Origin: Gemmiger formicilis
GTDB lineage: Bacteria; Bacillota_I; Bacilli_A; RFN20; CAG-826
NCBI GenBank assembly: GCA_963612735.1
Contig: CAVDWX010000092.1
Location: 3,439-67,438 of the forward strand
DNA: 64,000 nucleotides
Reading direction: 5' to 3'
The stretch's first letter is position 1, and each line of letters opens with the position of its first letter. The notes beneath the pieces were generated by a model that was given only the letters and a program-made list of their open reading frames with translations, was not told where the DNA came from and did no database searches. This document shows, one piece after another, positions 4,443 to 52,920 of this stretch. The position numbers were made by a program, and so were the translations under genes.

Positions 4443-4504
4443 ATGTATCTCCTTATACATTATAATATACACGCCATTAGATAAAATATCAAATTTTCCT
4501 TGTC

Positions 4505-5506: not shown

Positions 5507-6166
5507 CTAATTTTTTTCATCTAAATAAATGTAACGATGTCCGTGGAATTTGTAGCCACGTCGTATCGCTCTGGAAATGTGAGTAGAAGGAGCATGATAT
5601 TGATCTGCAACACTTTTTACTGATGGGTAAATACGAATAATATCTCCAGTTTCGGATACTTCAGCTACTTGTCTATATTTTTTATTAAGAGGAACAGCAA
5701 TTTTTTCTTCTTTATTGAAACTCCAGAAAAACCCTCCTGTTTGACTAAAAATTCCTTTGCAAGTTTTTAAAATATTTTGATGTAAACAACCTGTTACACG
5801 TTCAGCTTCATTAGCGCTAACAAACTCATTAATGAAATTGCCTTGTAAATCGTATTGATAAACAGGTGTCTCTAAAAAATTTCCGCAGTCTCCTCCTTTA
5901 GTGCTATTATAACCATTGGTATAAGAATCATAATATTGAATGTAATAAATTTCTTTTTCATTTAATTTATCTTGAGGAATATTTTCTTCTATAGGTTCTA
6001 TTGAAAACTTGTCTATTCCATATGCACGCATTGCTCGATACAAATGAACATCTGAAAATTTACTATAACAACAATGCTGATCTCATCTTCTTTTTAATCG
6101 TTGAATGGTTTGCCCTATATACACTTTATCATTTACAGTGTTGGTAATTTTATAAATCATTCCCAT
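5507..6166 (-). CDS. free-standing GIY-YIG homing endonuclease
   Basis: N-terminus MGMIYKITNTVNDKVYIGQTIQRLKRRWDQHCC has W encoded by TGA in the conserved RW-x-x-H position. It overlaps the end of the permease gene by 17 nt. Confidence 0.75.
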
Positions 6167-7508
6167 TCTCATTCTTTTTGTCCTTTAAAATTAAATTCAA
6201 AAAGATACCAATAATCATAGCTAAAGCTACGCCAGTAAAAGTAAAATTACCAATTGGAACAAACAACCCTCCAACTCCCGAAATTAAAATAATAGAAACA
6301 ATTAAAGTATTTTTTGTATTTTCTAAATCAATCTTTCTCAATTCTTTCAATCCGCTAATGGCGATAAAACCATATAAAATTAATGCGCATCCGCCAAACA
6401 CACAATAAGGAATTGTTTGAACCCATCACATTAAAGGAGCAAATAGTCCTAAAATTATAGCTAAAATTGCGGCTCCAATAACCGGATATATACTTCCAAC
6501 CTTAGTAATTCCGATAACTGCGATATTTTCTCCGTAAGTAGTATTGCCCATACCACCAATAAAACCTCCTACAGCGGTGGCAATGCCATCACCCAAAGCT
6601 GTTTTGTCTAAACCGGGTTCTTCTAATAGATCTTTTTGAATAATATTAGATAAATTTAAATGATCTCCTATATGTTCGCAAAAAGCCACACAACTAACTG
6701 GAATTGCTATCAATAATATTTGAGGAATTTGACTTCAAGTAAAGTGATTATATTTAAAACCTTTAAAAGCCTCAATAAAAGAAAATTTAGGCAATCATTT
6801 CAATTTTGCACCAAAAGAAATCAATTGCATTGATTCATTTCCACAACTCTTTCCAATCAAGGTTAAAATTAAAGCCAATATGTATCCTCCTATAATAGCA
6901 ATTAAAAACGGCAATGTTTTGAGCAATCCTTTACCATAATAAGATAATAATGCAACAATTAACATTGTAAAGATAGCTACTAATAAAGATCAACCATTAA
7001 AATCGATTAATCCGTTTTGCATGCTCCAAGAAGTTGCAAATCCAGCGAGGCCTAAACCAATTAAAGTTACTACAGGACCTACAATAACGGGAGGTAAAAT
7101 TTTATGTAATATATTTGCACCAAATTTTTTAACTATTAAACTTAATAGCATATAAACTAAAGCTACAACAGTTAACCCTAAAATTAAAGCAATGTAATTA
7201 CCACCTGGTTCTTCAGAAGCTCCAAATCCCATAAATAAACAAGCCGACATAATGGGCATAAGGGCCGCGCTTGAACCTAAAAAAACAGGGCTTTTGAATT
7301 TAGTAATAAAAGCATAAATAATTGTTCCAATACCTGCGCTAATAATAGCAGCAGGAACCATTTCAAAACTTTGATAAGTTAAAATAGAAATTAAAGATGT
7401 AGCAACGAACATTGCCAAGCAGTGCTGAATACTATACAATATGATTTCTTTTTTAGAAGGTTTATCTTGAATATCATAAAGTAAATTCTTATTTTTATTC
7501 ATTTCCAT
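6150..7508 (-). CDS. uracil/xanthine permease (NCS2 family, UraA/PyrP-like)
   Basis: Three ORF fragments join in frame through two TGA codons. Contains EHIGDHLNL...ALGDGIATAVGGFIGGMGNTTYGENIAVIGITKV, a close match to the UraA core. Confidence 0.75.
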
Positions 7509-8031
7509 AATCCTCCTTTAGTACCTTAACTAATTCATCACTTGAACAAACTAATTTACCATGAGTTTTTATGGCACCTGTTAAAAATATATTAACATAA
7601 CTCATCTGAGCTTCGCCCGGTTCTTTTTGCATGGCCGCCAATTTTTGTTGGCCAACTTCTCCTTGGCAAGTTAAGAAACCTTCTCGGCAATCATCGTAAA
7701 GAGCATATAAATTCTTTTTTGGGTCGGCGTCAATCATTTGAGTATAAATGCCTATTTCACAAGTGGTTCCTATTGGAGGAGTATCGTTACTGATTACTGC
7801 AATTAATAAATCTGTTTCTTTTAATCGATTATAATCCCCTCAATAAATATCATATGAGGTAGCACATTTTGTTTTATCATTTATATTTTTATTACGATGA
7901 GGAACATAAATTTGTGCATTTGGGAAAATAGGTACTAAACGTTCGTATAATCAATCAAGATACATTCGGTCTTTTTCAGTAAAAATTGGACCGGCTAAAT
8001 AAATTCTATTTGCAACCTTCTTACTATTCAT
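7384..8031 (-). CDS. nucleoside 2-deoxyribosyltransferase-like protein (NDT/Rcl family)
   Basis: N-terminus MNSKKVANRIYLAGPIFTEKDRMYLDW... carries the YLAGPxF motif of PF05014. Two internal TGAs are read as Trp. The 3' end is uncertain because TGA at 7495 is read through in code 4. Confidence 0.55.
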
Positions 8032-9042: not shown

Positions 9043-10126
9043 GATTTGTTATCGCTCCTTCTATCCCATCTTCAGCTAATCTTAATTTTACAAGGTAAGG
9101 ATGACGCAAGCGTCCTCGATCGTTGTAACTCATTGCTTTTACTACAGCAAAAAGGTTTCCTTTTTTAATATCTTCAGTTGCAGAAACTAACCATTCTCTG
9201 TCTTCATCGGTTAGACCACTTGTTACTGAAGTTGTGTTTCCATCTGGCAGCTGAACCACAATGCCATTTGCCCAGCCATAATAATAAGGCTTAGTAACAG
9301 GTTCCCAGTCTGTCCATGGGTCATTTAACTCCACTGCAGATGGAGTTCTGATTACTAATTTTTTTTCTCCGCTATCAAGATAAGAGACTTCCCAATAAGA
9401 CCAATTAGAAGGATTTTGACCTTCGTATTCTCTCTTTGGTACTAAGACTCCAATTACTGGTAGCTCCATTTCTTCTAAACTTTGTTTTAATTTCAAAGTT
9501 TTCCATGCGGTACGAGTTCCTGGTAAGTAGGGGTTATCCTTACGTTGAATTACTACTCCTTCTCCACCTGCCGAAATAATTTGGTCTGCATGTTCAGCAA
9601 AGTCATTGGTAAAAATGGCAGTTGGTTTAAAGTAGTGATTAGATAGTTGTGAAAGAGCTCCTAAACGTTGCTCATATGGTGTGTTAGTTAAATCTTGATT
9701 ATTATACATTAAGACATCAAACATTAAACCATATAGCTTGTTCTCTTTTTGTCTTTCAACTGCCTTTGGTGGTAAACAACGTAAGATGGTTCCAACTGTA
9801 TTAGCATTAGTGCCGTATTCGTTCCAACAAATCTCTGCTAAGACAACAGTATTGTCTGGCCAAGTGTCCATTTCTTCAGTCAGATGAGGAAGTTTAGCAG
9901 TGTAATCTCCATATGCACCTGTGACTTTGCTGATGCTTCTACTGTGGATTAAATTATTGCCTTTAGAAAAATGAGCAAAAAGTCCAAAATCTCCATCATG
10001 CTTTTCTGTGGCTATATAAAGATTATCTTTGTTGTCAATCATAGCTTGACGTTTAAGGTTAGAATCATCTTCATTATTATAATATTTCATAATTGGCATT
10101 TCGTAGGCTATATAATGAATGTCCAT
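9023..10126 (-). CDS. ATP-dependent polynucleotide ligase (DNA or RNA ligase, nucleotidyltransferase superfamily)
   Basis: Motif I ATEKHDG (KxDG), motif IV GGEGVVIQ, motif V AWKTLKLK. Arg is absent after KxDG, so an RNA-ligase-like identity cannot be excluded. Confidence 0.6.
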   Translation of the reverse strand: MDIHYIAYEMPIMKYYNNEDDSNLKRQAMIDNKDNLYIATEKHDGDFGLFAHFSKGNNLIHSRSISKVTGAYGDYTAKLPHLTEEMDTWPDNTVVLAEICWNEYGTNANTVGTILRCLPPKAVERQKENKLYGLMFDVLMYNNQDLTNTPYEQRLGALSQLSNHYFKPTAIFTNDFAEHADQIISAGGEGVVIQRKDNPYLPGTRTAWKTLKLKQSLEEMELPVIGVLVPKREYEGQNPSNWSYWEVSYLDSGEKKLVIRTPSAVELNDPWTDWEPVTKPYYYGWANGIVVQLPDGNTTSVTSGLTDEDREWLVSATEDIKKGNLFAVVKAMSYNDRGRLRHPYLVKLRLAEDGIEGAITNHGNEEK

Positions 10127-10173
10127 AAGTGTCTCCTTTCTAAAAAAGATAAAAGATTAATTATTTATAATAT

Positions 10174-10202
10174 ATTATACTAAAAATTTTTCGATTTGTC
10201 AA
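10174..10202 (-). promoter_or_regulatory. sigma70 consensus promoter
   Basis: cttgacaaatcgaaaaatttttagtataatata on the minus strand, a perfect -35/-10 with 17-nt spacer. Confidence 0.7.
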
Positions 10203-10209
10203 GAGAATT

Positions 10210-12333
10210 TTAAAATTTTGGTTTATATCTTACTAAACGCATATTTAGACTGTCAATATCGAAAATAGTCCTGCTGTATGTAAAAACTCATAATGAGTTA
10301 TCAAAAGTTTTTGATAGTGGTATTCAACTGATAGGATTTGAAAATCCGCTATATTCTGCAATTACTACATCTTTTTGGTCATCATAATCGTCTGGTATAT
10401 CGAACTTAAAGATACATTCGGTAAGTTGATCTCCTTCTTTTTTTTCAATTCTGTCTGTTGTTCATATGTCAATATCTCAATCTTTTTGAAAATTTTTACA
10501 TATAACAGGTTTTAAATATTGTTGATCTGATTCATATTCAAGATTATGTAAGGCCGCATAAAAGAAATTCTGTGAAACATAGGATCATAGACCTATGAAA
10601 GTCTGTCCTTTTTTTTGAAAAAGAGCATTATATGGTTCTCCACCTGAAGAAACATTTGTTTCCATTTGTCCTAAATTTTCATTTCATTTAAACTTACCTG
10701 TTTGGAGTGAATCATAGGTTCAATAATTGCCTACAAAATCATTAATTGTAAAACTCTGTTTCAAACCTTTATTTAAGGTTTGCATTAGTGGACAATAATA
10801 AGGAAAGTAACCAGGTTTTAAAGGACGAATACCTGAATAAAATTTTAAATATGATTGGTATCAACCTTTGTTAGCAGGCAATCATGCATAAGCAAAGCAA
10901 TAGCTCTCTCCGTTTTTACGATATTCATCAGAATTAATATCATCTACTTGTGGTTCAAAATCTTTTTCTTGAATTTGAGTTATTTTAATAATCGGTTCTT
11001 TGACAATCGTACAAAGTAAAGTGAATTTTAAAGAATCAGTACCGTTAGATGGATTTAAAGCACCATTGCCCACTACTACATATTTTGGTGTTGGCTCTTG
11101 AGTATTTTTGTATGTAGCATAACATTTATTATCAAAATTAATAGTTAAGATACGACTTTGAGATTCTAAAATTAGTTTTGATAATAAATAGTCTCGAAGA
11201 CTTTCTTCGCCTTGTATAATATGTTGATTAAGGTTATCTCGACCATGAATAAAATTTTCAAAATTTTCTCTTGGAGAGAGTAATAAAAACTTTCAATTTA
11301 CATCACTAAAGTCTAGTTGAACTTCTAATTTATCCTGAATACCTAAATAATGTCCAAGCTGAATTTGCATAGGAGTACTCCTTTCAGTTGAAATTGTTAC
11401 TCCTGCATTATTAGAAGCACTAAATTTACCTGAGGAATTGAAAGGATCAAATCCTCTAATACATTTTCACGTTCCCGGATCATGAGAACATAACAATAAA
11501 ACATCTTGTTCAACATTAAAATCACTAGAGGTCTGAAAAATATCGGTTGTATAAGAAAATTGATCAGTAGCTTTTAATTTTAACTTATCATCTTCAATAT
11601 TTGCAGTAAAACCTTTTCAATTATCTGCATTTGGGATATCAATAGCTATTCAAACTGGAGAACTTAAATGTCAATCAGTATAATAAAGATTTTGACCTTT
11701 TGAATCTTTATCTCGAATATCACTATAAGTATTTATTTTTTGATCTTCTTTTTCTGTTTTAGTCCAATTAATTAAATTAATTGCTTTTCCTCGTATTTGC
11801 ATAGTACCTCAATTTGATCGTTCGTACAAATTAGGATACAGAATATTAGGTATATTTGTATTTTTATGATATACAGTTCGATTAGCATCGGGAGTAACGT
11901 AATTTCTAGAATATGCATTTTGTAATAAGCTTCTATTCTGCCAACGATAAGTATCTAATCATAAAGTTTTGCTAGCAAATCCTACATCATCAAAGTAATA
12001 AGTGGTACGAATGCTTCCTGATGATGAACCAACAGGCTTTAAAATAAAAACACCATCTTCTTTATACACTATTTGAACAGAACTTCCATTGGCATTTTTA
12101 AATTTTAATAATTCACAAAAGGGATCTTTTGCAGTAATTTCTATTTGGCTTCCTTGACCACTTACAACTGTGATGCTGTTATTTTTTATATCGCTATTAT
12201 CAAAATATCCTTTAAATTCAACTTTTTGAAAAGAGAATGTTTTTTGAATTAAATCAGGCAATTCTTCTTTAGTTTTATTTTCAAACAAATTAGTTGTCTG
12301 TTGATTGTCATAATAAATATACTCATCAGCCAT
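10210..12333 (-). CDS. large hypothetical protein (about 707 aa, many TGA=Trp codons)
   Basis: Single continuous frame from MADEYIYYDNQ... to ...NMRLVRYKPKF when TGA is read through. No recognisable domain. Confidence 0.5.
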
Positions 12334-12345
12334 ATAACTTACCTC

Positions 12346-15910: not shown

Positions 15911-15980
15911 TAAGAGAAATTGAAATTTTGAAAATTTTAAAGTAAATTATTATATATAGTGAAGTTTAAGCTTGTTAAAA

Positions 15981-16009
15981 TTGACAGCGGAAAAATTATT
16001 TATTATACT
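15981..16009 (+). promoter_or_regulatory. sigma70 promoter for the plus-strand tail-fibre block
   Basis: TTGACAgcggaaaaattatttatTATACT, followed by RBS aggaggaagg and the ATG at 16062. Confidence 0.6.
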
Positions 16010-16061
16010 ATTATGAACAATAGAAGGAAAAAGAAAAATTTTCTTCTTAGGAGGAAGGCAA

Positions 16062-18845
16062 ATGATTACAATGATTAAGCAAACAAGCAATACTAAAAAG
16101 CTTTCCAATTTTCGTATTTCAACTTATGATGCGAAAATCACCACACCTGATAAAAAAACTGTAGAAATCATATATAATTCCTACGGTGTGCCAAATTTAT
16201 CTGCGGTTGACTTAGGTCTTTACGGAGACCGCAACGTTACGATATTAAAACTTAATTTCAAAGATTTATTATGGAATACGGCAGATGCAACAAATTATCA
16301 GATTAGTTTATTTGTGGATGGAAATAAAGTAGACACTTTTTTTGAAATGGATAATACATATCCTATCGTAACTTATCCTATTGATACAACTTCTCTGACT
16401 GTTGGAACTCATGAATTTGCAGTTTCAATTATGGAAAAGAGTAAAACGAGCGGTTCAAATATTGATATTAATCAAGAAGTATACTTATGCCGTTCTTTTA
16501 ATGGTACGGTTAATGCTAGTGATTTTTATGAAGCAGCCAATACTTTTGATTTTGTTGGCATTTCAAATAAAGGTTTACGTAGACATCAAATAGAAGTAAT
16601 GCTTGCAGATGATGGACAATTTGCATTAAAACAAGCAATAACAAGTGATGAGCAATTTAGCACTGATTTGGGTATGCAATATGACCGTTTTGTTAGTTAC
16701 ATCTGTTTTAATGAATCAAGTGATATCACTGGAAAGGTAACAAATTTAGATAAGTATATTGTTTTTCAAAATTTAGCTTTAAGCACCAATTACTATGTTA
16801 AACTTAATACAACTAGCGGCCATCAACATGAAACAGAAGATACTTTAACAGCATGAGTACCCGCAGAAGTTACGGAAGTTGCCGGAGCTTGAACTATTTA
16901 TTTTGTAGGAGTAAATGAAGACGAGTCAATTAGATTTGTAAGCCGCAGCATCTCATTAACAGTGTTGCCAACAACAATTCCATATGCCGAAGTAAATCCA
17001 GAGCGCGGCATCAATATTCCTGTTACGTTTGAATTATCGTTTTATTACGTATCAACTTCAACAAAAGTCGTCGAAGCTTGTGCCATTTTAAAAGATGAGT
17101 CTTTAAGCGCACTAGCAGAGATTACTAACACAGAGAAAGAAGTTTACTTACGACAAGGTGAAACATATATTCTTGAATTATATCCAGAAGGTGAATGAAG
17201 CTATCAAGGAGGTAAAGTAATCCGAGAATCTAGAATTATTTATACTGTGCCTAAAGACGCAACTGCAGATACTTTTACTGGAACATATGAAATAACCGCT
17301 GAACCACCAATTCAAGAACTAATGATTACACCTACTGAAGAAGACCAAGTTTTTAACAAAGAAGGAATTGATGGTTATAAACCAGTAAATGTTTCAGCAA
17401 TTCAAACAGAAACTCCAAGTGTTGATTTATCTCTTGCAAGTGGAAATCAAACAGTGAATGCTACTAGTGGAAAATATATAAAATCTCTTACTATTAACAA
17501 ACCTAGTACTTTAATTGCAGCAAATATTAAGAAAAGCGTGGTTATTGCAGGAATAACGGGTACTTATGAGTTTAAAACACAAAATAAAACTTTTACACCA
17601 ACTCAAACAGGAGGTTCAGTCAGTGCTGATAGTGGTTATGACGGTTTAGGTGTAGTCGCTGTTAACCCCGTACCACTTAGTAATAAAACAGATGTTTCTT
17701 TAAACTTCTATAATCAAAGTGCTGGAACAATTGCAGATAGTCAAAATATCTATTCTGACGCAAATAAATTCATGACTTGGGCAAGTGTTATTCGTCCTGA
17801 AACTTTGATTGCTGAAAATATTAAAAAAGATATTATAATAGCAGGAATTACAGGAACATTAGTAGGAGAAGATTTACCAGTTTATACAGGATTATTAAGA
17901 TTTAGTACAGCACCTACAATTAGTTTAAGTGGATCAACATTAAGTTGGGAAGCGATAGAGGGAGCAACAAGCTATGATATTTACAAAGACAATGCTCTAT
18001 TAAGCAATGTAACTACAACAAGTGTAGATTTAAGTACGCTAATTACAACAGCTGGCACTTATGCAATTACAGTTAAAGCCAAAGCAAGTAACTATGCTGA
18101 TAGTGAAGCAAGTAATAGTGTTAACTATGTGGTTCCATCAGCGTATAACGTAGTATTACCAAAAGCATATACCAATACTAATGTTTATTGTGCCTATTCA
18201 ATAGATGATGGTGTAACTTGGGTTGAAATGAAAACTGCTACTACAATACAAACTACACAAATTAAATTTAAAAATGTAGGGAACTCGAGCTATCACTATT
18301 CTTTATATTCAACATTGTTAGGAATGACATTATATTATGGCAAAACTTCTCAAAATTACATATTAACTCAAGATATTACAGATATTCAAGTTGATTACTA
18401 CGTTACTTGTTTAACAGGAGATACTCTAATTACAATGGCAGATAATTCACAAAAACAAATTAAAAACGTACAAATTGGCGATTGTGTACTTTCTTTAAAT
18501 GAAAACGGGGAAAAGGTAAGTAGTAAAGTTTATTATTCTGATGCAAATGAATATAAGACAGCATCTTATTATGACTTATTTATATTCTCTGATGGTACGG
18601 AAATCAAAGTAGTTAGAAGGCATAGATTTTATAACAATAGAACGCAAAGTTTTATTCACTTAGATGAATTTGAAGTTGGCGATAAAACTTATAAAGAAGA
18701 TGGAACTTGGGTTGCACTAATAGATAAAAAATACAAAGCAGAAGCAGGAGTTATTCGACATTTTACTATCTTCTGTGAACATAATACATACTTTGCAAAT
18801 GGTTTACTTGCAGGCAATAAATATAGTGATAAATTAATTTTATAA
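16062..18845 (+). CDS. tail fibre-like protein (about 927 aa) with C-terminal intein/Hint module
   Basis: Four ORF pieces share one frame across TGAs. Residues about 785-910, CLTGDTLITMADN...IFCEHN, form a mini-intein-like Hint module ending HN followed by T. Confidence 0.6.
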
Positions 18846-19735: not shown

Positions 19736-19738
19736 TTT

Positions 19739-20944
19739 ATGAGTATTACATCTGTTTATAAATACACGAACGATAGTTGAGTAAAACTAAAAGCCTTTCA
19801 AGCAACTAGTGATGGAAATTGAAATCAAGTTAGTTCTACTACTACTCCTATAACTAGTACCGTTGATGCCTTTTTAGTAGATAGCGCTACAAATTATGCC
19901 TACTTTACCACTATGCTTGGAGGCGGCAATGGCACTTATACTGCAACCACAACTCTTGGTTCCGTAAGCATTGAAGGCAATGTCTTAGAATTATATGTTT
20001 ACTCTGCCGGAAGTGGTACTTGTACAATTACTTCAGGTGAAGCAACATTAGAAATTCCAATATATGTCGGATATATTGAATGCTTAGTAAAAGATACTCT
20101 AATTACTATGTGAGATCGCACGCAAAAGCCAATTCAAGATATTCGAAATGGCGATTATGTGCTTTCATTAAATGAAAAAGGTGAGGAAGTACCTGGATAC
20201 GTCTATTACGCAGATGGCGATCAATGCAAGACAGGTCAACATTATGACCAATTTACCTTCTCGGATGGCACTGTTGTGAAAGTTGTTCATCGTCATAGGT
20301 TTTACAACAATTTTGATAGAACATTTACTCATCTGGATAATTTTTATATCGGAGATAAATGTTATAAACAAGACGGGACTTGGGTTACTTTGGTAGGAAA
20401 AATTGATCGTGCCGAAGAAGGTATTATTCCTCATTATACAATTTTCTGTAATAATAATACATATTTTGCTAATGGGCTACTTTGCGGTAATCGTTTTAGT
20501 AAAAAGGTAAAATTGATTGATCCAACCATTCCGGCTGAACCTACTTATAGTTGACAACCAGTGGCACGAAAATTTCCAGATGACTTTAAAGTATCAAAAA
20601 TTTGAGTAGACAGTAAAGATAAAGATATTTATATTGAAAAGAACGGTCAAGCGATTAATTATATTCAAACTGACAACAATGAAGCCAAAATGTTTTTATA
20701 TCAATATAATGGTGAAAAAGATTATCATAATATTACTTTAGAAGAATTAGATACAAACGCTGAATTGGTATTAGAAATTACTGAATATGACACGCAATAT
20801 GATATAACCAATTTAATTTATAATTATATTTTATATTATGAATACAAAATAGACCGCATTTCTCCAATAGCAACAATAAGTATTGAGAATGCGGGGGGGG
20901 TGTCAACATTGAGATGAGGAGGCAGCAGTCCTTTAGGAAAATAA
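19739..20944 (+). CDS. tail fibre-like protein with internal intein/Hint module (about 401 aa)
   Basis: Single frame through TGAs. Hint module CLVKDTLITMWDRTQ...IFCNNN, then conserved TYFANGLLCGNRFSKK (paralogous to the C-terminus of 16062..18845), then a further 120-aa C-terminal region. Confidence 0.55.
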
Positions 20945-21015: not shown

Positions 21016-22185
21016 ATGGCAATTATTGTAAGAAAAAACAAAGCGACGGTACAAGCCGTTAAACCAATTGCCTTATCAAGTGTAATGACTTTTAGCAATA
21101 CTTTTGACCCTACAGATTCAATTAAACCAGCAATTGAAATCAAAATTGGGGTCGATGGACATGCTACTAACAAAGATGGCTCTGCTTTAGGTACACTTGA
21201 TTTAGGCGTTCAAGGAGAACATCACGTTAAGTGAATGAAGATTGATTTAACCAGTCTTCGTTGAGGTTCAAACTCAAATCCTAATTACATATATAAATTA
21301 ATCTTTGAAAGCACAACTGAACCTGCAATTCATTTTGAATACCCGTTCGAATGTGACCAAACAGGTGGCACTTTCAAAATTCCTTCAACCATTACTAAAT
21401 ATGCTCATATATATCGTATTGCATTGGTAATTGTAGAAGAAGCAAAAACTACTGGTAACGTATCATCTCATACTGAAATATTTAGTAGTTATTCGTGAGA
21501 AGGAGCGGTTAAAAGTTCATTCTATGACTTAAATGCAATCAAACGTGCCTTATCATTAGACACCGACCAACTTCAAGGTTTAACTAAATCAGTTATCGAA
21601 GTTGCACTTGGAGATAATGAGAAAACAGAAGTCATAAGAGATATTAGCGGCAACAATTTTGCTTACTTGATAGGCGGAGAGTTATCTCTAACTCCACGTT
21701 CAATTGGTGTCCGCAACGACCATTTTATCCGCTACTTCAAATTAAATTCTGCATACCTAAGCAACAAGCTCACCGAGTTCGATTTATACTTATGCTTTGA
21801 AAAAGACGGATATGTTTATGCCACTCAATTCCAAGAAGTGCCACATAGTGATGATGGCAAGGATGACTATGACGCAGAAGCACCTTGAATTGCATGGGTT
21901 CATCCTGCAGTTTATCGTTCTGCCGGGGATTGGAATATGTGCGTAGTTGCAACGACTGAAGATTTAACTACTGAAAATGATTATGCTACCGGAGACTTCT
22001 ACCGCTTCATATCATCAACTTTAGTCGGCATTATTGATAATAGTGGTCTTCGCTATCGTGGACAAGATACAGATTCAGCAACTGATGATACATATTTAAT
22101 GTCTAATGACGAAAAAGCTCTTCAAAGTAATGATGGGTATGTTATAGATGCGGCAAAAATTGGCAGCACGGAGGAAGATTGGTAA
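21016..22185 (+). CDS. hypothetical tail/baseplate protein (about 389 aa)
   Basis: Three ORF pieces in one frame through TGA codons. Confidence 0.45.
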
Positions 22186-23000
22186 TGGCAAAATACGTAA
22201 TTAAAGATTTATCGGCAAAGCAAATTGAGCAAGTGTTAGTAACATCTTATCATGCATTAAGCAAGCCACTTCTTATTTATCCATCTGTTGATGCGCTTAA
22301 AGAGCATGTCGAATTAGAATTGAATACTAGCACTAATATTCACAAACTTAAACAAATTTCATCTGCGGACGGCAACGTCGTAATTCCATATGAAGAATGT
22401 CATGTGGGCGATTCACTTTTCGTTTTAAGTGGTATTCAATTAGACGAATATAAATTAGCAAGAAAAAACCCACCTGTTGACTTACCAATTATAGGCACAG
22501 ATGAAACAGATGGTTTCTTATATCTAATATGTAGCACTTCATTAAGCATCGCCGCAGGAATTGCACTTAATGATAACACATTTGAATTTCCGGAAGAATT
22601 AAAAAAGACTGCGAGTATTCTTAAATATTCAGAAACTTCAGGATTCTTCAAGTTCTTAGGTAAGCTACATGATTTAATTCTAGATGGCACAATGCTTCGT
22701 AATACTACTTATTATGGGGCAATAGATTGAGAAGAAGAATATATGCCGACAATTTATCCATATATTTATAGAGATGTGGAAAACACTGAAGCAGTGCATT
22801 TGGGAAATGCCGAATTAGCTGTCCACGTTCTATATAATTGAGGAATAGTAATGGAAATGACTTCATTCTGCGCACCTACTAAGGCGGCACGTACTTGGAT
22901 GATGACTTTACCATTCGGTTTAATGACTGAAAACCCAGACACTATGGAACCTTATCATTGGACAGGAACTGCCGAAGTTGGCAGATTAGTTTGTAATTAA
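22179..23000 (+). CDS. hypothetical structural protein (about 273 aa)
   Basis: ORF 22179..22730 continues through TGA to the TAA at 23000. Confidence 0.45.
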
Positions 23001-23007
23001 AGAAAAA

Positions 23008-23034
23008 AGAGGCCATTAAGGTCTCTTTTAATTT
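23008..23034 (+). terminator. rho-independent terminator
   Basis: agaggccattaaggtctc hairpin followed by TTTTAATTT, directly after the last plus-strand fibre-block gene. Confidence 0.6.
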
Positions 23035-23127
23035 GGCAGGGGATCCAGGAGTCGAACCCGGTTCGGAGGTTTGGACGCTCCTACGATGATTTTGAAGATC
23101 ACTGGCCAGAACCGTTAGCCCAATCCC
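23034..23127 (-). tRNA. tRNA with anticodon UCA (reads UGA) and long variable arm
   Basis: Minus strand GGGGATTGG-GCTA-ACGGTTC-TGGC-CA-GTGAT-CTTCAAA-ATCAT-[GTAGGAGCGTCCAAACCTCCGAA]-CCGGG-TTCGACT-CCTGG-ATCCCT-G-CCA. The T-loop is TTCGACT, the discriminator is G, CCA is encoded, the anticodon loop is 7 nt with U33 and A37, and the variable arm is about 23 nt. Confidence 0.6.
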
Positions 23128-23162
23128 CTGTAAGGGATGAGTACCTATCGTCGCAAATTAGT

Positions 23163-23459
23163 CTTACGTTTGTAAGGTGCTCAAGTTTGATTGTACCCTT
23201 TTGGCGTCATTGTTTGAAGTTTCTCTATTCAATACTTTTCACGCCGATTAAGGTCTTTGATAGAACACATCTCCAATACATCTCAACGAAAGAAAGTTTT
23301 GTTTCTCTTAAAATCTCTTTGCATCTGTTTGTTTGGATGTGTTCCCTTTTGTAGGGAATGAAGATGTTGGTCTCTGCGACGGGGAAGATCGTCAGTTTGA
23401 CCAACATACTGTTTTCCGCTTTTCATATTGGTGATTACATAGATACCGCTAACGGCCAT
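23163..23459 (-). CDS. minimal GIY-YIG domain protein (98 aa)
   Basis: MAVSGIYVITNMKSGKQYVGQTDDLPRRRDQHL... It has two TGA=Trp codons, its GC content and codon usage differ from neighbours, and it sits directly beside the tRNA. Confidence 0.6.
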
Positions 23460-23482
23460 GTCTTCTCACCTCACCTCGCTTA

Positions 23483-23773
23483 TTAAAAGTTTAATTTAGC
23501 CACAACAATATAAGTATCAGGTTTAGTAACTTCGCCGGCTTTATTAGTTTTGCCTTGTTTAAACTTTTTGTCTACACCAGCAAAATTAGGGTTTTGACGA
23601 ACTTCATCAACTTTACGATCAGCTGCATCTTCGCCATAGAAAGTATAAGTTTCTTTAGTTTTAACTACATCGAAACCACTAATAGTTTCGTTATGTTCAA
23701 GGGCGAATTCAATTTTAGTTAAACCTTCTTTTTCGTGTACTTCTACGTATCTTTCAATATCACTTAAAATCAT
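23483..23773 (-). CDS. hypothetical protein (96 aa)
   Basis: Intact ORF downstream of the promoter at 23809..23837. Confidence 0.45.
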   Translation of the reverse strand: MILSDIERYVEVHEKEGLTKIEFALEHNETISGFDVVKTKETYTFYGEDAADRKVDEVRQNPNFAGVDKKFKQGKTNKAGEVTKPDTYIVVAKLNF

Positions 23774-23808
23774 TTCGCATTACCTTTCCTTTCTTAACTT
23801 TATAATAT

Positions 23809-23837
23809 ATTATACTACAATTTTTCAATTCTGTCAA
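23809..23837 (-). promoter_or_regulatory. sigma70 consensus promoter
   Basis: cttgacagaattgaaaaattgtagtataatat on the minus strand. Confidence 0.65.
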
Positions 23838-23947
23838 GAATTTTTTCCGCATCTGGAGAATTTGATTATAATACCACCTTGTTATATAATATATTAACAG
23901 ATGAGAGAAAGCAATTATTCACTCTCCGCCATCTGTAGGAGGTATTT

Positions 23948-24607
23948 ATGGCATATTTTGGCATTAGCCTAAAAAACAACGAAGAACAACAAGAGTTCGC
24001 GCGATTAATTTCGAGTTCTGAGAAGCAAATTATCTTCTGCACCGGAAAGGCCGGAACCGGTAAAACCTTTGCCGCACTAGCCACGGCGCTTCAACTTAAA
24101 GCGCTTGAAAAGCGTTATGACCATATCGTGTATTCGCGCAACCCGGTCCAGCTAGGTGAATCAATGGGTTATCTGAAAGGAGATATTGATGATAAATTCA
24201 CTCCCTTTATGGGCGGTTTAATCGACAATCTCAAAAGCATTTCACGTGCCAGCACTCTAAAACCTAATGTTAACGACCTTAAAGCCAAAGTAGAAATTGT
24301 ACCAATCGCATTTTTACGAGGACGTTCATTTTCAAATACCATACTAATAATTGACGAGGCGCAAAATTTGGACTTAACAACCCTAAAGGCTGTGCTAACC
24401 CGCTTCGATGATTATTCAAAAATCATTTTAATGGGCAGTATGAACCAAATTGACGACCCTAAACAAGCTCGCAAAGATAGATGCGACTTCCTTAAAGTTA
24501 TCGAAGCCTTGGCAGATGAGCCTTATGTAGGAATAGTCGAATTAGTGCAATCTATGAGATCGGCGCATTGTGTCCGCATCGATGAATTGTTAGGGCAAAT
24601 CAAGTAG
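23948..24607 (+). CDS. phoH: PhoH-like ATPase
   Basis: Walker A GKAGTGKTF, Walker B IIDEAQN, and the PhoH signature MGSMNQID. Confidence 0.8.
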   Translation: MAYFGISLKNNEEQQEFARLISSSEKQIIFCTGKAGTGKTFAALATALQLKALEKRYDHIVYSRNPVQLGESMGYLKGDIDDKFTPFMGGLIDNLKSISRASTLKPNVNDLKAKVEIVPIAFLRGRSFSNTILIIDEAQNLDLTTLKAVLTRFDDYSKIILMGSMNQIDDPKQARKDRCDFLKVIEALADEPYVGIVELVQSMRSAHCVRIDELLGQIK

Positions 24608-24635
24608 CGGATGCCGAGAAACTGCTTGGCCTGTC

Positions 24636-24690
24636 CGTCAACGGCGCATAGAGGGGACCCTTTAGGGTCGCCGCTCTTTTGATTCCTATA
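24636..24690. terminator. bidirectional terminator between convergent phoH and dut
   Basis: GC hairpin gaggggaccctttagggtcgcc followed by CTCTTTTGATT. Confidence 0.45.
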
Positions 24691-24723
24691 CCGCTTTGAT
24701 TCTTATGACGCTTTGATTAAATA

Positions 24724-25215
24724 CTACTTACCACTTGAACCTAATTTGCCTTCACCACGTTCACTACGAGTGAGTGCAGATTGATATTCTTCGTCGGAAG
24801 CAATAGTAGTAATCACATCAATACGATATTCAGGTATTAATTGAGCAATACCTTTACTAATTGGATAATAACCCTTACCTTCTTTAACTGTCCATTTGTC
24901 TACTCCATCAGTAATAATAACATCATAATCATTAGTATTGCATAAGGCAATAAAAATCTCGCCCATATATTGCTCGTCAATAATACCACAATGAATGTGA
25001 AGACCTTTTGAACCAGTACTGCCTCTATCAGCTGCTCTCAACCAGATATGGTCAGGAAGAATAACTTTTAATCCAGTTGAAATCATTACTGTTGTATGAG
25101 CAGGAAGAATAGTAGGCTCAATTGCATAAACATCAAAACCTGAATCACTATCTCTCTTAGTGGGAATAATTGCTTTTTCATTACAAGGATACCATTTAAT
25201 AATTTTTTCTTGCAT
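24724..25215 (-). CDS. dut: dUTP diphosphatase
   Basis: dUTPase motifs SGFDV, RGSTG, GIIDEQYMGEI and C-terminal RGEGKLGSSGK. Confidence 0.8.
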   Translation of the reverse strand: MQEKIIKWYPCNEKAIIPTKRDSDSGFDVYAIEPTILPAHTTVMISTGLKVILPDHIWLRAADRGSTGSKGLHIHCGIIDEQYMGEIFIALCNTNDYDVIITDGVDKWTVKEGKGYYPISKGIAQLIPEYRIDVITTIASDEEYQSALTRSERGEGKLGSSGK

Positions 25216-25289: not shown

Positions 25290-26891
25290 TTAAAAATATA
25301 TTCAATTTTCCGGAGTAGCGAAGCCTTTAACACCCTTTTGATAGTAATGAACAATTTCATTTCATACCGCAGGTGCAAATCAATAAGCTCTTAATTCGTC
25401 ATCTGACATAGCCAATACAGAGTCTTCTGTAGAACTATATTTGAACAAAGGAACACCGGCTTCCATCATAATAGTAGAAATTAATAAACGTCCTGCAATA
25501 GGTCATTCAGAAGTTACCGGCAATCCTAAAAAATTGTTCCAATTACTTTTAACTTTCTCAAGTAACGTTTTGTCTTTAGGCATTTGAATAACCTGATAAT
25601 GATTATCATCTTTTACAGTTCTGCCATATATACTATCTCCTGTTAAAGTTGAACCTTCAATTGGTTCCATAGAAGTAAATACTACTTCTTTAAAATGTTT
25701 ATAAGCAGTCTTTAGTACCTCTACCTTTATTTCATCTGTAGTTTCATCAACACCAATTCAATTATTACTACTTATATTGGTTATACCCATCTTATATCAT
25801 TTAGGCATTGGTAGTTGTCCTGTTGGAATACGGTATAAACCTTTAGAAGGTCTAATTGTAAAAGTCTTTTCAGCTACTTTTAATGTCTCGCCTGAAAAAT
25901 TAACACGACCAATACCTTCACGATATTGTCTAGCCATGTTTTGTAGTGTCGTAATACCACGTGCAATAATTTTATTAACACGGTCAACTACGTCTGCTAC
26001 AATTGGTTTTAATGTTTCAAAAATAGTTATATCTAGTTCGCTGCTTAAATAAAAGGTGCTATCAATTTTCTGAGCTTCAGTTGCGATTTGATTATATATG
26101 CTTTTAGTTATTTCTTGTATAGAGTGCGCCAAGTCGGATTGCATTGGATCGTTTTTTGTTAATGCACAACCAATCCCCTTCATAATTAAATATTTTAATG
26201 TAGGCAAATCAGTACTAAGAAATTGAGTTAATGTTTGGCAGATGTATCGAGTAACACCATATTGATAAGGATGCAACAACTTAGTGCGAGCATCTTCAAT
26301 GTTTTGCCAATGTACTTCCAACTTAAAATCTTCTTGTGGATTTAAGTCGAAACGACGACCTCACTGAATAGAACGCCCTTTTAGAGACATTTGAGCTTTT
26401 CCCTTTTGAGCAGTTGTACCATTCATAGAAAAAGAAGGTACTTGTATTTTTAAATTTTTAACATTACGTAAGAATTCTTTAAACTTTTTATCTTTATTTA
26501 AATCATAAACTCAAGGAGATTGGCCACGAGAAGCAGTACCACCGATAATAGTATTTAATGATGCATAAGAACTATCATATGCTAATGTATACATCATTTC
26601 AGCAAAGTTTAATTTTGCTCCAGTATCATCGGTTTTAGTCGTCCATCCAGTATCAATAAATTCTTGATAAGCATCATTACCAATCCCAAAGCAACTTCCT
26701 TCATCATCATTAGTGCGTCAAAAATTGCCTGAATAACCCCATTTATTAATTGTATATGCAGCACCATCTGAACTATTTTTAACAAAGGCTTTGTTTACGT
26801 GGTCTAAAATACGATTTAAACTATTCAAATCGCGTGAATCTTTACCAATATAACCAATATTATCGTGCCTAATACAATAAATATATGCCAT
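25290..26891 (-). CDS. large hypothetical protein (about 533 aa, TGA read-through)
   Basis: ORFs 26718..26927, 25797..26321 and flanking segments share one frame across multiple TGAs. Start MAYIYCIRHDNIGYIGKDS is preceded by RBS aggagagg. Confidence 0.5.
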
Positions 26892-26924
26892 ACTTCTTAC
26901 CTCTCCTAATAAAAAAGTGACCCG

Positions 26925-27060
26925 CAACGGCTTGCACGTCTACCATATCTCTCCGCCGTTCTCCGACTTTGCTGGTAGTCTCTAACGTTTCGAAGGTCCC
27001 ATTTACTCCGTCGAGACTTGCGGGCTTCACCACTCATGCTACCACACATCGCGGACTACC
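26925..27060 (-). promoter_or_regulatory. GC-rich structured 5' leader with terminator-like stem plus U-run immediately before the RBS (attenuator/riboswitch-like)
   Basis: Transcript from the promoter at about 27070-27100 (TTGATA-17-TATAAT). Contains ggtagtc...gactacc pairing and a long-range cccgcaa...ttgcggg stem ending in tcacTTTTTT, followed by the RBS. Confidence 0.4.
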
Positions 27061-33278: not shown

Positions 33279-33353
33279 GTGGCACGGGTTAAAAGACTTG
33301 GACTCTTACTGGCGGTTTTGGAGGCCGACGTGCTACCATTACACTAAACCCGC
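33279..33353 (-). tRNA. degenerate tRNA-like element with anticodon-loop CCA (tRNA-Trp-like)
   Basis: Minus strand GCGGGTT-TA-GTGT-AATGGTA-GCAC-G-TCGGC-CTCCAAA-ACCGC-CAGT-AAGAG-TCCAAGT-CTTTT-AACCCGT-G-CCA. Acceptor has 7 bp with G1-U72, G73 and CCA. Anticodon stem is weak and the T-loop is atypical (TCCAAGT). Confidence 0.4.
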
Positions 33354-33356
33354 ATA

Positions 33357-33466
33357 TGGGGAGATATACCGGATTTGAACCGATGCCGAAAGAGCCACAA
33401 TCTTTTGTGCTGCCCCGGCTCCCGCAGCTTGGAAGGCTGCCATACAAAGCTGTTATACGAATACCC
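33357..33466 (-). ncRNA. tRNA-like structured RNA (T-arm GGTTCAAATCC, ends CCCA); candidate Y-RNA-like or pseudo-tRNA
   Basis: Minus strand ...GGCATCGGTTCAAATCCGGTATATCTCCCCA sits 3 nt upstream of the previous element. The 5' GGGGTAT can pair with 3' ATATCTC, enclosing about 110 nt, too long for a canonical tRNA. It lies in the GC-rich leader between the promoter at 33518..33545 and trxB. Confidence 0.3.
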
Positions 33467-33517
33467 CATTGGGTAACCCAAAGCATTTAAACTTTGAACT
33501 ACCTATACGATTAATAT

Positions 33518-36589: not shown

Positions 36590-36608
36590 CTCCCCGTTAA
36601 TCAAATAT

Positions 36609-36690
36609 GGTGGATTTTATGGGATTTGAACCCATCTGAAAATTTCCTGCTTGCAAGGCAAGCGACCACCCCTAGCAGTCCCAAAACCCA
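36609..36690 (-). tRNA. tRNA-Ala(UGC)-like with 10-nt variable loop
   Basis: Minus strand GGGTTTT-GG-GACT-GCTAGGGGT-GGTC-G-CTTGC-CTTGCAA-GCAGG-AAATTTTCAG-ATGGG-TTCAAAT-CCCAT-AAAATCC-A-CCA. Has G3-U70 and A73 (Ala identity elements) and anticodon UGC. The anticodon arm is nearly identical to E. coli tRNA-Ala. Confidence 0.5.
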
Positions 36691-38694: not shown

Positions 38695-39098
38695 TCTAGT
38701 ACTTCGCCATCTATTTCTTCCCTAAAAGCACACCAAACATCTTCTTCTAAAAAATCACGAATTGCAGGGATTAAGTTAAAAGTAGGTCTTGTCGCTGTAA
38801 AGCGAATATCTTCTACTTGTACATCTACTAATGGTGCTATACCTCGATTTACTCTGATTTCATTAATATCATTAAGACGACCATTATTTTCCCAAATATT
38901 TACTAAATCTTCTTCAGTAAAGAAAGGAATCGATGCACCTTCTTCTACTGGGCGAAAAGTTTTTTGTAAAAATTCATTAAATTTTTCAATATACTCAGCA
39001 TTAAGCTCCATAACATTAATATACTCTACACGTTCAACAGAACGAATTACTAATTGTCTACTCACAATTAATTTCCTCCTTATTTCTTCCAAGGCCAT
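38652..39098 (-). CDS. hypothetical acidic protein immediately downstream of the sigma factor gene
   Basis: 148-aa ORF ending EEEEEPWQ. Its start overlaps the sigma gene stop. Confidence 0.45.
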   Translation of the reverse strand: MALEEIRRKLIVSRQLVIRSVERVEYINVMELNAEYIEKFNEFLQKTFRPVEEGASIPFFTEEDLVNIWENNGRLNDINEIRVNRGIAPLVDVQVEDIRFTATRPTFNLIPAIRDFLEEDVWCAFREEIDGEVLDWEFGMEEEEEPWQ

Positions 39099-39919
39099 GC
39101 TGCCTTTAATTTTTGTAAACTTGCTTTTTCGATTTGTCTAACTCTTTCACGAGTTAAGTTTAATTCAGCTCCAACTTCATCTAAAGTATGAGTTTTTGTC
39201 CAATTAATTGGGTCACCATTTTCAACCTTACCTAAACCCATACGCATTTTAATTACTATTTGTTCACGTGGTTTTAAAACGGTCTTAATTAAATCTTGAA
39301 TTACTTCTTCTTTTTCCTTACGAACTGCAAAATGTTCAGGTGTTTCGCTTCTTGTGTCTGCTTGTAAGTCACTTAAAGTGTCACCATCATCTCCTAATGG
39401 TGTTTCAAGACTTACAGTGTCATAGCGCCAACCTTCCAAGTCAGCAACCTTTTCTACATCGATGCCCATAACTTCTGCGATACGAGCAGGTGTGGCTTTT
39501 CCACCCTTACTTTCTAATTCAGCAATAGTTGCTCTATACTTGTTCAACATTTGATAAATATGAGCGGGAATACGGATAGTTTTTCCGCAATCAGTGATTG
39601 CTTTAGTAATGGCTTGACGAATCCAAGGAGTCGCACAAGTTGAGAAACGATAACCTAAGTCTGGATTGTATTTTTCAACCGCAGTGATTAAACCTAAATT
39701 TCCTTCAGCGATTAAGTCTAACTTTTCCATATGACTGTTTTGATAATTATTTGCAATTGATACAACCAATCTTAAGTTACTATTGATTAATTGTTCTTTC
39801 GCAGCGTGAGCAACTTCAGGGTCTTCGCTTCTCATTTTGTATGCTAATTCTCTTTCTTCATCTGCACTTAATAATTGATATTCACCAATTTCTTTCATAT
39901 ATTTATTTAATGCTGTCAT
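39080..39919 (-). CDS. phage-encoded sigma-70 family RNA polymerase sigma factor
   Basis: Region 2 (LRLVVSIANNYQN...DLIAEGNLGLITAVEKY), region 3 and region 4 (TLDEVGAELNLTRERVRQIEKASLQKLK). Confidence 0.8.
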   Translation of the reverse strand: MTALNKYMKEIGEYQLLSADEERELAYKMRSEDPEVAHAAKEQLINSNLRLVVSIANNYQNSHMEKLDLIAEGNLGLITAVEKYNPDLGYRFSTCATPWIRQAITKAITDCGKTIRIPAHIYQMLNKYRATIAELESKGGKATPARIAEVMGIDVEKVADLEGWRYDTVSLETPLGDDGDTLSDLQADTRSETPEHFAVRKEKEEVIQDLIKTVLKPREQIVIKMRMGLGKVENGDPINWTKTHTLDEVGAELNLTRERVRQIEKASLQKLKAAWPWKK

Positions 39920-39973
39920 ATACTTAAAACCTACCTTTTCTTTTTATTTTTCTTTTATTTTATTTATATTATA

Positions 39974-52885: not shown

Positions 52886-52920
52886 TAATTATCTTCTTCC
52901 TTTCTTCGTTCCTCTCTATT

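Follow-up and report, generated by a model that had tools for sequence, protein, structure and literature searches.

Phages that have recoded TGA to tryptophan (Trp) carry their own suppressor tRNA for this codon, tRNA-Sup-UCA (Borges et al., bioRxiv 2021.08.26.457843; Zeta crAss-like phage Lera, PMC12386605). In these phages in-frame TGA is concentrated in late, structural and lysis-type genes and the early genes stay compatible with the standard code; a mosaic of TGA-rich and TGA-free gene blocks has been published for recoded phages (bioRxiv 2021.08.26.457843). The published code-change module combines the tRNA with a phage tryptophanyl-tRNA synthetase (TrpRS) and RF1. The charging of phage suppressor tRNAs has been stated as an open question (bioRxiv 2021.08.26.457843). 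Here we analyzed a 64-kb stretch of DNA (contig CAVDWX010000092.1, positions 3,439 to 67,438; hereafter the window) that encodes a tRNA with the anticodon UCA and a long variable arm. Suppressor tRNAs of recoded phages are well known and the tRNA of the window belongs to that kind: like the phages above, the window has TGA in late and structural genes, an own UCA tRNA, TGA used as Trp, and early genes compatible with the standard code. It differs in that the loop of the long variable arm displays the Trp anticodon, CCA, which is not described in those papers, and in that no TrpRS or RF1 homologue was found in the 64 kb.

The tRNA gene is composed of the following elements (coordinates are those of the window).

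23034..23129, minus strand: tRNA gene of 96 nucleotides (nt), predicted opal (UGA) suppressor with a tRNA-Trp-type body and encoded CCA (ARAGORN, cloverleaf fold, covariance model)
23093..23095, minus strand: anticodon UCA, in the loop CUUCAAA at 23097..23091 (sequence, ARAGORN)
23065..23081, minus strand: variable-arm hairpin GGAG-CGUCCAAAC-CUCC, with linkers CGUA (23085..23082) and GAA (23064..23062) (sequence, fold)
23072..23074, minus strand: CCA triplet, the sequence of the Trp anticodon, in U-CCA-A of the variable-arm loop CGUCCAAAC (family conservation)
23037..23044, minus strand: 3' acceptor strand AUCCCCU and G73, pairing with 23123..23129 (A1:U72, G2-G5:C68-C71, A6:U67, U7:A66)

ARAGORN reported the gene as a 96-nt "tRNA-SeC" with anticodon tca on the minus strand. 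Read from the minus-strand sequence, it has a 7-bp acceptor stem (AGGGGAU/AUCCCCU) followed by UG, an atypical D-arm with a 4-bp stem (GGCU-AACGGUUCU-GGCC) followed by A, an anticodon arm GUGAU-CUUCAAA-AUCAU, a variable region of 24 nt (CGUA-GGAG-CGUCCAAAC-CUCC-GAA), and a T-arm CCGGG-UUCGACU-CCUGG, and the CCA 3' end is encoded in the DNA after G73. A first-pass annotation of this DNA had described a UCA tRNA with a canonical T-loop, G73, encoded CCA, a cUUCAaa loop, a 7-bp acceptor, a 5-bp T-stem and a 4-bp D-stem, all of which we see in the sequence. It had also given the variable arm as long, stem-looped and of about 23 nt, of which the hairpin stands and the length becomes 24 nt, and had placed the element at 23034-23127, which is the right locus but leaves the 5' end 2 nt short, since A23129 pairs with U23038 (the gene is on the minus strand). 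The fold that it had named as contrary to its reading, a class I tRNA-Trp with a short variable loop, is not what was found: the variable region has 24 nt.

The cloverleaf is the minimum-free-energy fold of this sequence, with a D-stem of 5 bp and a 7-nt loop, and its stability is not above that of shuffled sequence (z = -0.18). In the Rfam tRNA-Sec (selenocysteine) alignment the D-stem is drawn as GGCUAA-CGGU-U(C)UGGCC, where 6 bp require a bulged C, and U8-G65 could lengthen the acceptor to an 8/4 form. Rfam at gathering thresholds returned nothing at this site; in a local Rfam scan the best model was tRNA-Sec (RF01852), with 43.8 bits against a cut-off of 47 (E = 1e-7). Our own covariance model, which has the window sequence in its training alignment, scored it at 77.7 bits. 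The first-pass annotation had named failure at covariance-model thresholds (a pseudo-tRNA) as a point that would count against its reading; the tRNA-Sec score does fall below threshold, but a pseudo-tRNA is not what we conclude. Besides the ARAGORN call and the direct reading of the UCA anticodon, 40 homologues in other contigs covary with it. Because these 40 homologues show strong covariation and none of 500 shuffles reached the observed score, we judge from comparative data, rather than from fold energy, that the element is a genuine tRNA gene.

The nearest relative of the window phage in the INPHARED and IMG/VR collections, which is not close (L001; 63% identity in PhoH), has a syntenic homologue with GGAGG-GUCCAAA-CUUCC at the variable-arm position. 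An unbiased scan of IMG/VR with the pattern CTTCAAAA-N{28,42}-GGTTCGA-N13-TGCCA, in which the arm was unconstrained, returned 54 viral loci that yielded 37 distinct full-cloverleaf tRNAs, window included. UCCA was present in the variable-region hairpin loop of 36 of these 37 long-arm tRNA(UCA), and 26 had the exact 7-nt loop N-U-CCA-A-N (CUCCAAA in 14, GUCCAAA in 9, and UUCCAAC in 3), with 31 distinct variable-arm stems in the family. In a MAFFT alignment, the positions T55, C56, C57 and A58 of the window tRNA were nearly invariant, though the scan pattern had left them free. The covariance model built from the family realigned 41 members (40 besides the window, with 6 of the 41 from gut metagenome-assembled genome (MAG) contigs), 39 of which had UCCAA in the arm loop. 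In this alignment 96.3% of cells were paired, 21 of 26 pairs had changed on both sides (0/500 shuffles reached the observed value) and all five pairs of the variable-arm helix covaried; as the alignment was fitted to its own model, these pairing counts lean towards structure. Across the family the consensus form is 7/5, and every cell of the 5-bp T-stem is paired (100%). When the scan was anchored on the D-arm and the arm loop and the anticodon arm (hairpin A) was left free, CUUCAAA occupied that place in every proper member, and the same anchors with a short variable loop matched 8 loci only.

The arm hairpin (hairpin B) usually consists of approximately 5 bp and a 7-nt loop, with linkers of 4-6 nt on the 5' side and 3-5 nt on the 3' side. 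These linkers are longer than those of ordinary class II tRNAs, and on the 3' side the linker reads (A/G)GGU, similar to the variable loop of a class-I tRNA. A canonical cloverleaf remains when either hairpin is deleted. Two exceptions were recorded, one in a Lachnospiraceae MAG contig (L131, 1554-1647, minus strand) with the arm loop GCCCACA, which has CCCA in place of UCCA, and one (L057, 2905-3002, plus strand) with a 28-nt variable region without a CCA hairpin. L033, L038, L042 and L048 matched the pattern with an unpaired acceptor and were left out of the family as not tRNA-like. Separately, a repeated sequence, AAACGTTGCAAAATCGGCACGGATTTTTGCACGCTTCAAAAATCC...GGTTCGAATCCCTCATCCCCTGCCA, matched the scan pattern in L033, L036, L038, L042, L048, L070, L072, L073, L077 and L081 (IMG/VR 3300045988 and others); its T-arm is tRNA-like and its 3' end Trp-like, but acceptor pairing and a cloverleaf are lacking, and it could represent the 3' half of a tRNA joined to other sequence. 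We also considered pairing of UCCAA with the D-loop, where some members with a long D-stem have UUGGA, and rejected it because most members have AAUGGUA there.

Control tRNAs lacked the conserved loop. The same pattern run on bacterial genomes found approximately 57 genuine selC genes that have selA and selB as neighbours. Their D-stem has 6 bp, their D-loop is UGGU and their arm loop GGAUAAxACC, and none of these approximately 57 had UCCA in the arm loop. A metagenome scan aimed at relatives of the window tRNA gave at least 100 distinct selC; among the matches listed there was bacterial selC alone, and no selC among them had UCCA in its arm loop. One control selC (L103) contains the letters TCCA in its variable region, in the stem and not in the loop, and among ordinary serine (Ser), leucine and tyrosine tRNAs of the same loci TCCA occurred in the variable region of 2 of approximately 220.

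A counterpart was found among long-arm amber tRNAs, which were collected with the pattern CTCTAAA-N{28,42}-GGTTCGANTCC-N10-GCCA followed by structural filtering.

L224, L275, L281, L289, L298, L302 and L327-L366 (IMG/VR contigs): long-arm amber tRNA(CUA) genes

The scan produced 29 distinct cloverleaf long-arm tRNA(CUA) genes. The arm hairpin of 23 of them contains a glutamine (Gln) anticodon followed by A (CUGA in 21, UUGA in 2), and UCUGC is present in 2 more; some of these arms mimic a Gln anticodon arm perfectly, for example that of L330 (CACGG-CUCUGAC-CCGUG). The remaining four lack both CUG and UUG in the arm; of these, L335 and L349 at least resemble ordinary class II tRNAs. The association did not cross over: TCCA was found in 0/26 CUA arms and CTGA in 1/96 UCA arms, and CTGA or TTGA occurred in approximately 5% of ordinary class II arms. 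This two-way match, UCA with CCA and CUA with Gln, is the strongest argument that the arm loop is selected as a cognate anticodon. The Gln identity of the amber family is based on the arm loop and the published recoding of TAG to Gln, not on the body. On average, gains in open reading frame (ORF) coverage had the expected direction: +0.16 under code 4 and +0.08 under code 15 for the UCA family, and +0.11 and +0.17, respectively, for the CUA family; these values, which are noisy owing to short, tRNA-rich flanks, were not relied on. The amber sequences also dispose of the idea that the arm loop mimics the 3' NCCA end, which we rejected because they have CUG or UUG instead. As a separate observation, position 1:72 of the amber family is often mismatched (A-C or U-U), with G73.

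The body of the window tRNA is of the tRNA-Trp type. In tRNA-Trp of the bacteria B. subtilis and E. coli, the identity set comprises G73, A1:U72, G2:C71, G3:C70, G4:C69 and G5:C68 (PMC9976931), and the window tRNA carries this whole acceptor set. The anticodon C34 C35 A36 of tRNA-Trp is not present at the anticodon position, where the window tRNA has U34 C35 A36. We compared bodies with the variable hairpin removed and the anticodon masked, using approximately 1,600 distinct tRNAs detected by ARAGORN in all fetched loci. The nearest neighbours of the window body were class-I tRNA(UCA) and tRNA-Trp(CCA), with 12 Trp and 3 UCA in the top 30, in a set of which Trp makes up approximately 4%. The acceptor and T helix adds up to 7 + 5 = 12 bp, versus 13 bp (8/5) in bacterial tRNA-Sec; the control selC genes from genomes fit the 8-bp acceptor form. 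In tblastn searches, E. coli SelA, SelB, SelD, RF1 and TrpRS had no match in the 64-kb window, and no SelA, SelB or SelD homologue was found in any locus of the long-arm UCA family; the same searches found SelA, SelB or SelD beside dozens of control selC genes. The search for selA, selB and selD that had been suggested with the first reading therefore came out negative in the window and the family loci, with positive controls. Two features of tRNA-Ser, the long variable arm and G73, are both present. The Ser-type pairs of E. coli are G1:C72, A/U3:70 and C11:G24. G2:C71 and arm size are further features used by seryl-tRNA synthetase (SerRS; PMC9976931), and at the Ser-type pairs G2:C71 alone fits the window tRNA, where A1:U72, G3:C70 and G11:C24 do not. 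Altogether, the Trp acceptor set, the Trp-like nearest neighbours, the 12-bp helix and the tRNA-Sec score below threshold show, at the level of sequence, a tRNA-Trp-type body in place of the Ser/Sec-type body first assigned to this tRNA.

We examined the coding use of TGA by taking TAA and TAG alone as stops, which gave long ORFs with many in-frame TGA codons. The non-overlapping gene set of the window has 81 in-frame TGA versus 168 TGG, with 16 TGA in a 712-codon ORF (10210-12345) and 9 in another (25290-26939); most of the genes interrupted by TGA are late or structural ones or encode homing endonucleases. From 27.5 to 51.2 kb, approximately 35 genes on the minus strand form a block essentially free of TGA, and the flanking modules have up to 16 TGA per gene; we take the block as a standard-code early region and the flanks as recoded modules. 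The transcription unit of the tRNA lies between the TGA-rich modules at 15.9-23.0 kb and 25.3-26.9 kb, approximately 4 kb before the TGA-free block. Several comparisons agree on the amino acid. In a GIY-YIG ORF (3666-4562, minus strand), a TGA aligns exactly with a conserved Trp of I-TevI (ERENFWIKELNS versus EREIYxIQYYNS; PDB 1LN0/1MK0). Translated with TGA as Trp, ORF 23146-23459 has a full-length match to Pfam GIY-YIG that crosses the first two of its three TGAs. In a permease ORF (6150-7517), 60 of 120 homologues, distant ones included, have Trp at one TGA column, and the other three TGA columns are hydrophobic or variable. The partners of masked TGA codons when window ORFs were aligned with related loci were TGA, Leu, Trp, Phe and similar residues, with Ser at 1 of 73. 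In a BLOSUM-based likelihood at TGA, Trp was best and Ser 17 log units worse (16 sites, including some spurious frames). These alignments show TGA standing for Trp in the window phage, as the first-pass annotation had proposed for this genome. Its further suggestion that in a TGA-recoded setting the UCA tRNA would be the suppressor fits a phage with 81 in-frame TGA at Trp-like positions.

On these grounds we favor, with somewhat better than even confidence, the reading that the variable arm is a surrogate anticodon for the host TrpRS, UCA decodes UGA, and Trp is inserted at TGA. The UCA arm would pair with UGA on the ribosome, and the CCA hairpin would be an identity handle for the host enzyme that secures or speeds charging with Trp. 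Either hairpin could stack under the D-stem, so that the arms swap, with the CCA arm presented to the synthetase and the UCA arm used for decoding. The dimensions of an anticodon arm and the unusually long single-stranded linkers make such a swap the likeliest geometry, and it might occur without breaking a base pair, as suggested by the canonical cloverleaf that is left when either hairpin is deleted. Possible readers of the loop are the charging enzyme, an mRNA codon and, in some bacteria, a T-box leader; we favor the synthetase because TrpRS uses the anticodon. We infer both the swap and the enzyme that reads the loop. The Trp anticodon is an identity element (PMC9976931), and E. coli TrpRS contacts C34, C35 and A36 (PMC12135181). 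A further, weak point in favor comes from the human TrpRS complex, in which the tRNA variable region is exposed to solvent and has no contact with the enzyme (PMC1538984). More broadly, recoded phages may in general use two-headed suppressor tRNAs, with a stop anticodon for the ribosome, a sense anticodon (CCA; CUG or UUG) for charging by the host, and arms that probably swap under the D-stem, a generalization to which we give slightly less than an even chance.

The TrpRS genes among the fetched loci stand beside short-arm class I tRNA(UCA) only, in two loci.

L183: tRNA(UCA) 7108-7182 and, approximately 2.5 kb downstream, TrpRS 9732-10715, 42% identical to E. coli TrpRS
L184: tRNA(UCA) 3606-3680 and, approximately 2.5 kb downstream, TrpRS 6230-7213, 42% identical to E. 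coli TrpRS

No TrpRS gene was found by tblastn in the 64-kb window or in the family loci. Several points weigh against a handle for the host enzyme. The two TrpRS loci are near-identical with short flanks, so this co-occurrence lends weak support, and a phage TrpRS could lie outside the 64-kb window. In its usual position the variable arm is unable to reach the anticodon pocket, so an arm swap is required. E. coli TrpRS need not discriminate C34 from U34 (PMC12135181), and B. subtilis TrpRS together with a simple UCA version of its tRNA-Trp brought about opal suppression when used in mammalian cells (cited in PMC2965240); because of these 2 facts the handle is not strictly required, and would be at most an efficiency enhancer or have another role. 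The window arm itself is an imperfect mimic (its stem has 4 bp and its loop 9 nt, or else a C-C mismatch closes the loop), and some of its loop bases are paired in the minimum-free-energy fold. Finally, the nearest neighbours of the amber-family bodies are a mix of Gln and Trp and not clearly Gln-like.

The fixed loop might instead be read by a codon. The tRNA would then have two decoding heads, the CCA arm for UGG and the UCA arm for UGA, and conservation would come from codon reading and not from a synthetase. Many members do combine a perfect 5-bp stem with a CUCCAAA loop, identical to the anticodon arm of a genuine tRNA-Trp; removal of hairpin A yields a canonical tRNA-Trp(CCA), with the 3' linker (A/G)GGU like a class-I variable loop, and the amber family shows CUG or UUG at the same place. 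We consider this unlikely nonetheless. U34 reads both A and G, as in code-4 organisms, and thus already covers the two codons. The window phage has a separate canonical tRNA-Trp(CCA), and in L040, L046, L044, L049, L064 and L079 such a gene is adjacent. Moreover, many arm loops, that of the window included, have G at the position-32 equivalent, loops of 8-9 nt or stems of 3-4 bp, which is unusual for a decoding arm. Alternatively, the arm could be an evolutionary relic: the suppressor would have arisen when its anticodon arm was duplicated in tandem, and the extra arm would now be kept as structure only, for example for stability or for repelling other synthetases. The Trp-like body fits this, as does the likeness of hairpins A and B in some members (in L040, GCGGU-CUUCAAA-ACCGU and CGGGU-CUCCAAA-ACCCG). 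We regard it as quite unlikely, because U-CCA-A is fixed on 31 diverged stems with compensatory changes and a structural arm would not hold its loop sequence, and because tRNA(CUA) follows an independent Gln-anticodon rule. A duplication may explain the origin of the arm, but not a fixed loop on diverged stems.

The annotation made at first had the tRNA charged by SerRS, with Ser, or Sec after conversion, inserted at UGA by a class II tRNA. G73, G2:C71 and a long stem-looped arm are indeed SerRS features (PMC9976931; PMC5389517), and both the ARAGORN label and the best Rfam model are those of tRNA-Sec. Some mischarging by SerRS is conceivable because these three features are present, but neither the coding evidence nor the body speaks for it. 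The chance that Ser or Sec is what this tRNA delivers appears slim: A1:U72, G3:C70 and G11:C24 stand in place of the Ser-type pairs, the acceptor and T helix has 12 bp with a score under the Rfam cut-off, no SelA, SelB or SelD was found although they were found beside control selC, and the 81 TGA codons fall at Trp or aromatic positions. In addition, the arm has long unpaired linkers, and a CCA loop such as its own is seen in no control Sec tRNA and in essentially no Ser tRNA. Just as improbable, in our view, is a regulatory decoy, in which the CCA hairpin would engage a host sensor of tRNA-Trp, such as the T-box leader of trpS or of the trp operon, or titrate a defence nuclease that targets tRNAs. 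T-box control of trpS is established in Bacillota. The likely host belongs to this phylum and the loop offers exactly the bases that pair with a UGG specifier, but the Gln version is left unexplained, and T-box reading requires canonical geometry from anticodon to elbow and hence an arm swap as well. Lastly, scores below the Rfam thresholds and a fold energy no better than shuffles would be expected of a non-functional pseudo-tRNA or chance cloverleaf. We give this next to no credence in view of forty homologues with strong covariation in every helix, a phage that needs a UGA decoder for 81 codons, and the consensus promoter-like site, terminator-like hairpin and encoded CCA. A handle for charging by the host TrpRS is thus the reading that we retain.

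The window is phage DNA of approximately 33% G+C that encodes the large terminase subunit (TerL), portal, helicase, ligase and ribonucleotide reductase. Its TerL is distant kin (at most 33% identity) of that of large phages of Bacillota, which makes this the likely host phylum. Positions 22000-25000 had no blastn match among INPHARED phages, and the exact 23-mer spanning anticodon and arm is absent from IMG/VR. A complete sigma-70 family sigma factor (regions 1.2, 2, 3 and 4) is encoded at 39080-39943 (minus strand), within the TGA-free block. The tRNA(UCA) is the last gene of a short minus-strand unit, which together with the second tRNA of interest is laid out as follows.

23809..23837, minus strand: promoter-like site TTGACA-17-TATAAT upstream of the unit formed by the 96-aa ORF, the GIY-YIG ORF and the tRNA; 12 of 12 sigma-70 consensus positions, a consensus match only, as the total of such sites in the region was not above shuffles
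23483..23773, minus strand: ORF of 96 amino acids (aa), first gene of the tRNA unit (ORF list); no Pfam match
23146..23459, minus strand: small GIY-YIG endonuclease ORF of 104 aa with three in-frame TGA, which stops 16 nt before the tRNA (Pfam)
23003..23030: GC-rich hairpin GAGGCC-AUUAA-GGUCUC between an A-run and a T-run, lying just 3' of the tRNA as well as of the plus-strand gene that converges on it
33280..33353, minus strand: canonical class-I tRNA-Trp(CCA) of the same phage (ARAGORN; Rfam tRNA, 50.8 bits)

The hairpin at 23003..23030 was read by eye from the sequence and was not listed by the scan that gave the promoter-like site; it is a probable bidirectional terminator. The D-arm of the phage tRNA-Trp(CCA), UUAGUGUAAUGGUAGCAC, equals that of most members of the long-arm UCA family. 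Directly upstream of this gene, at 33357-33467 (minus strand), is a 111-nt tRNA-like sequence that only our own covariance model detects (34.3 bits); neither ARAGORN nor Rfam at its gathering thresholds reported it, and its Rfam tRNA match was partial, at 19 bits. Its cloverleaf has the anticodon loop CUUCCAA (UCC, Gly), a weak acceptor stem and a variable arm of approximately 35-39 nt. This could be another long-arm tRNA, or a tRNA in decay. The phage also has an 82-nt tRNA-Ala(UGC) at 36608-36689 (minus strand) with G3:U70 and an unusual insertion of approximately 7 nt in the variable region, as placed by the Rfam alignment.

Several TGA-containing genes of the window deserve mention in their own right. 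The permease at 6150-7517 (minus strand) is a phage-encoded xanthine/uracil permease (PF00860) with four in-frame TGA, and its full-length homologues with 60-91% identity are on contigs of 107-130 kb, probably related phages. Four ORFs, all on the minus strand and all with in-frame TGA, have GIY-YIG motifs: 849-1949, 3666-4562, 23146-23459 and the C-terminal part of 51818-52888. The domain is confirmed for 23146-23459 (Pfam) and 3666-4562 (I-TevI match), and the other two were read by eye. Two of these ORFs flank a gyrB-like gene (2351-3673; Pfam DNA_gyraseB, HATPase_c) that seems to stop short after its GyrB domain, so the gene may be split or invaded. Hint-like segments of the form CL(T/V)GDTLITM...NGLL(A/C)GN are common to the TGA-containing ORFs 15960-18845 and 19736-20944 (both plus strand). 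The segment is C-terminal in the former (Pfam Hint, PT-HINT) and lies mid-ORF in the latter (approximately residues 115-250 of 403), where it is recognized by sequence similarity alone. In these probable tail proteins the segments look like self-cleaving or intein-like modules.

If our reading is true, this is a natural tRNA in which identity is separated from decoding, and host synthetases would charge phage suppressors without a phage-borne enzyme. If confirmed, it would be a means of encoding tRNA identity of which we found no account in the literature, and engineered suppressor tRNAs for genetic code expansion could take it over as a finished design. Long-arm suppressors may be missed or misnamed because they fall below Rfam thresholds or are labelled tRNA-SeC or tRNA-Pyl by ARAGORN, and this could contribute to the recoded phages without a reported suppressor tRNA. 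We did not find a published description of a variable arm carrying the cognate anticodon; most of the subscription literature was outside this search, so an earlier description is possible.

Among known tRNAs, bacterial class I tRNA-Trp has in common with the window tRNA A1:U72, G2-G5:C68-C71, G73, C35 and A36, and its body is the closest. The window tRNA departs from it in having U34 for C34, a variable region of 24 nt with a second, CCA loop instead of one of 4-5 nt, and an atypical D-arm. Bacterial tRNA-Sec (selC, RF01852) shares the CUUCAAA loop, G73, the long arm, the overall length and a possible extended D-stem, but it is 8/5 where the window tRNA is 7/5 and has its own arm loops in place of UCCAA, and the window has dozens of TGA at Trp positions and no sel genes were found in it. 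The allo-tRNAs (8/4 or 9/3, charged by SerRS; Mukai et al., PMC5389517) are likewise non-canonical long-arm tRNAs of phages and metagenomes with G73, and the possible U8-G65 pair could give the window tRNA an alternative 8/4 form. SerRS reads the length and orientation of the arm, not its sequence (PMC9976931). Unlike allo-tRNAs and class II tRNA-Ser, the family described here is 7/5, with a Trp-type acceptor, evidence for TGA as Trp, and a conserved arm loop sequence. In concept, besides the allo-tRNAs, the nearest cases are the anticodon-arm mimics of the E. coli thrS operator and the yeast AspRS mRNA (PMC9976931), where a hairpin also copies the loop of the cognate anticodon, and where the proposed binding partner is likewise the cognate synthetase, by way of its anticodon-binding site. 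Those mimics are located in mRNAs or viral RNAs and regulate translation, whereas the mimic in the window lies inside the presumed substrate tRNA itself, next to a different anticodon that would do the decoding.

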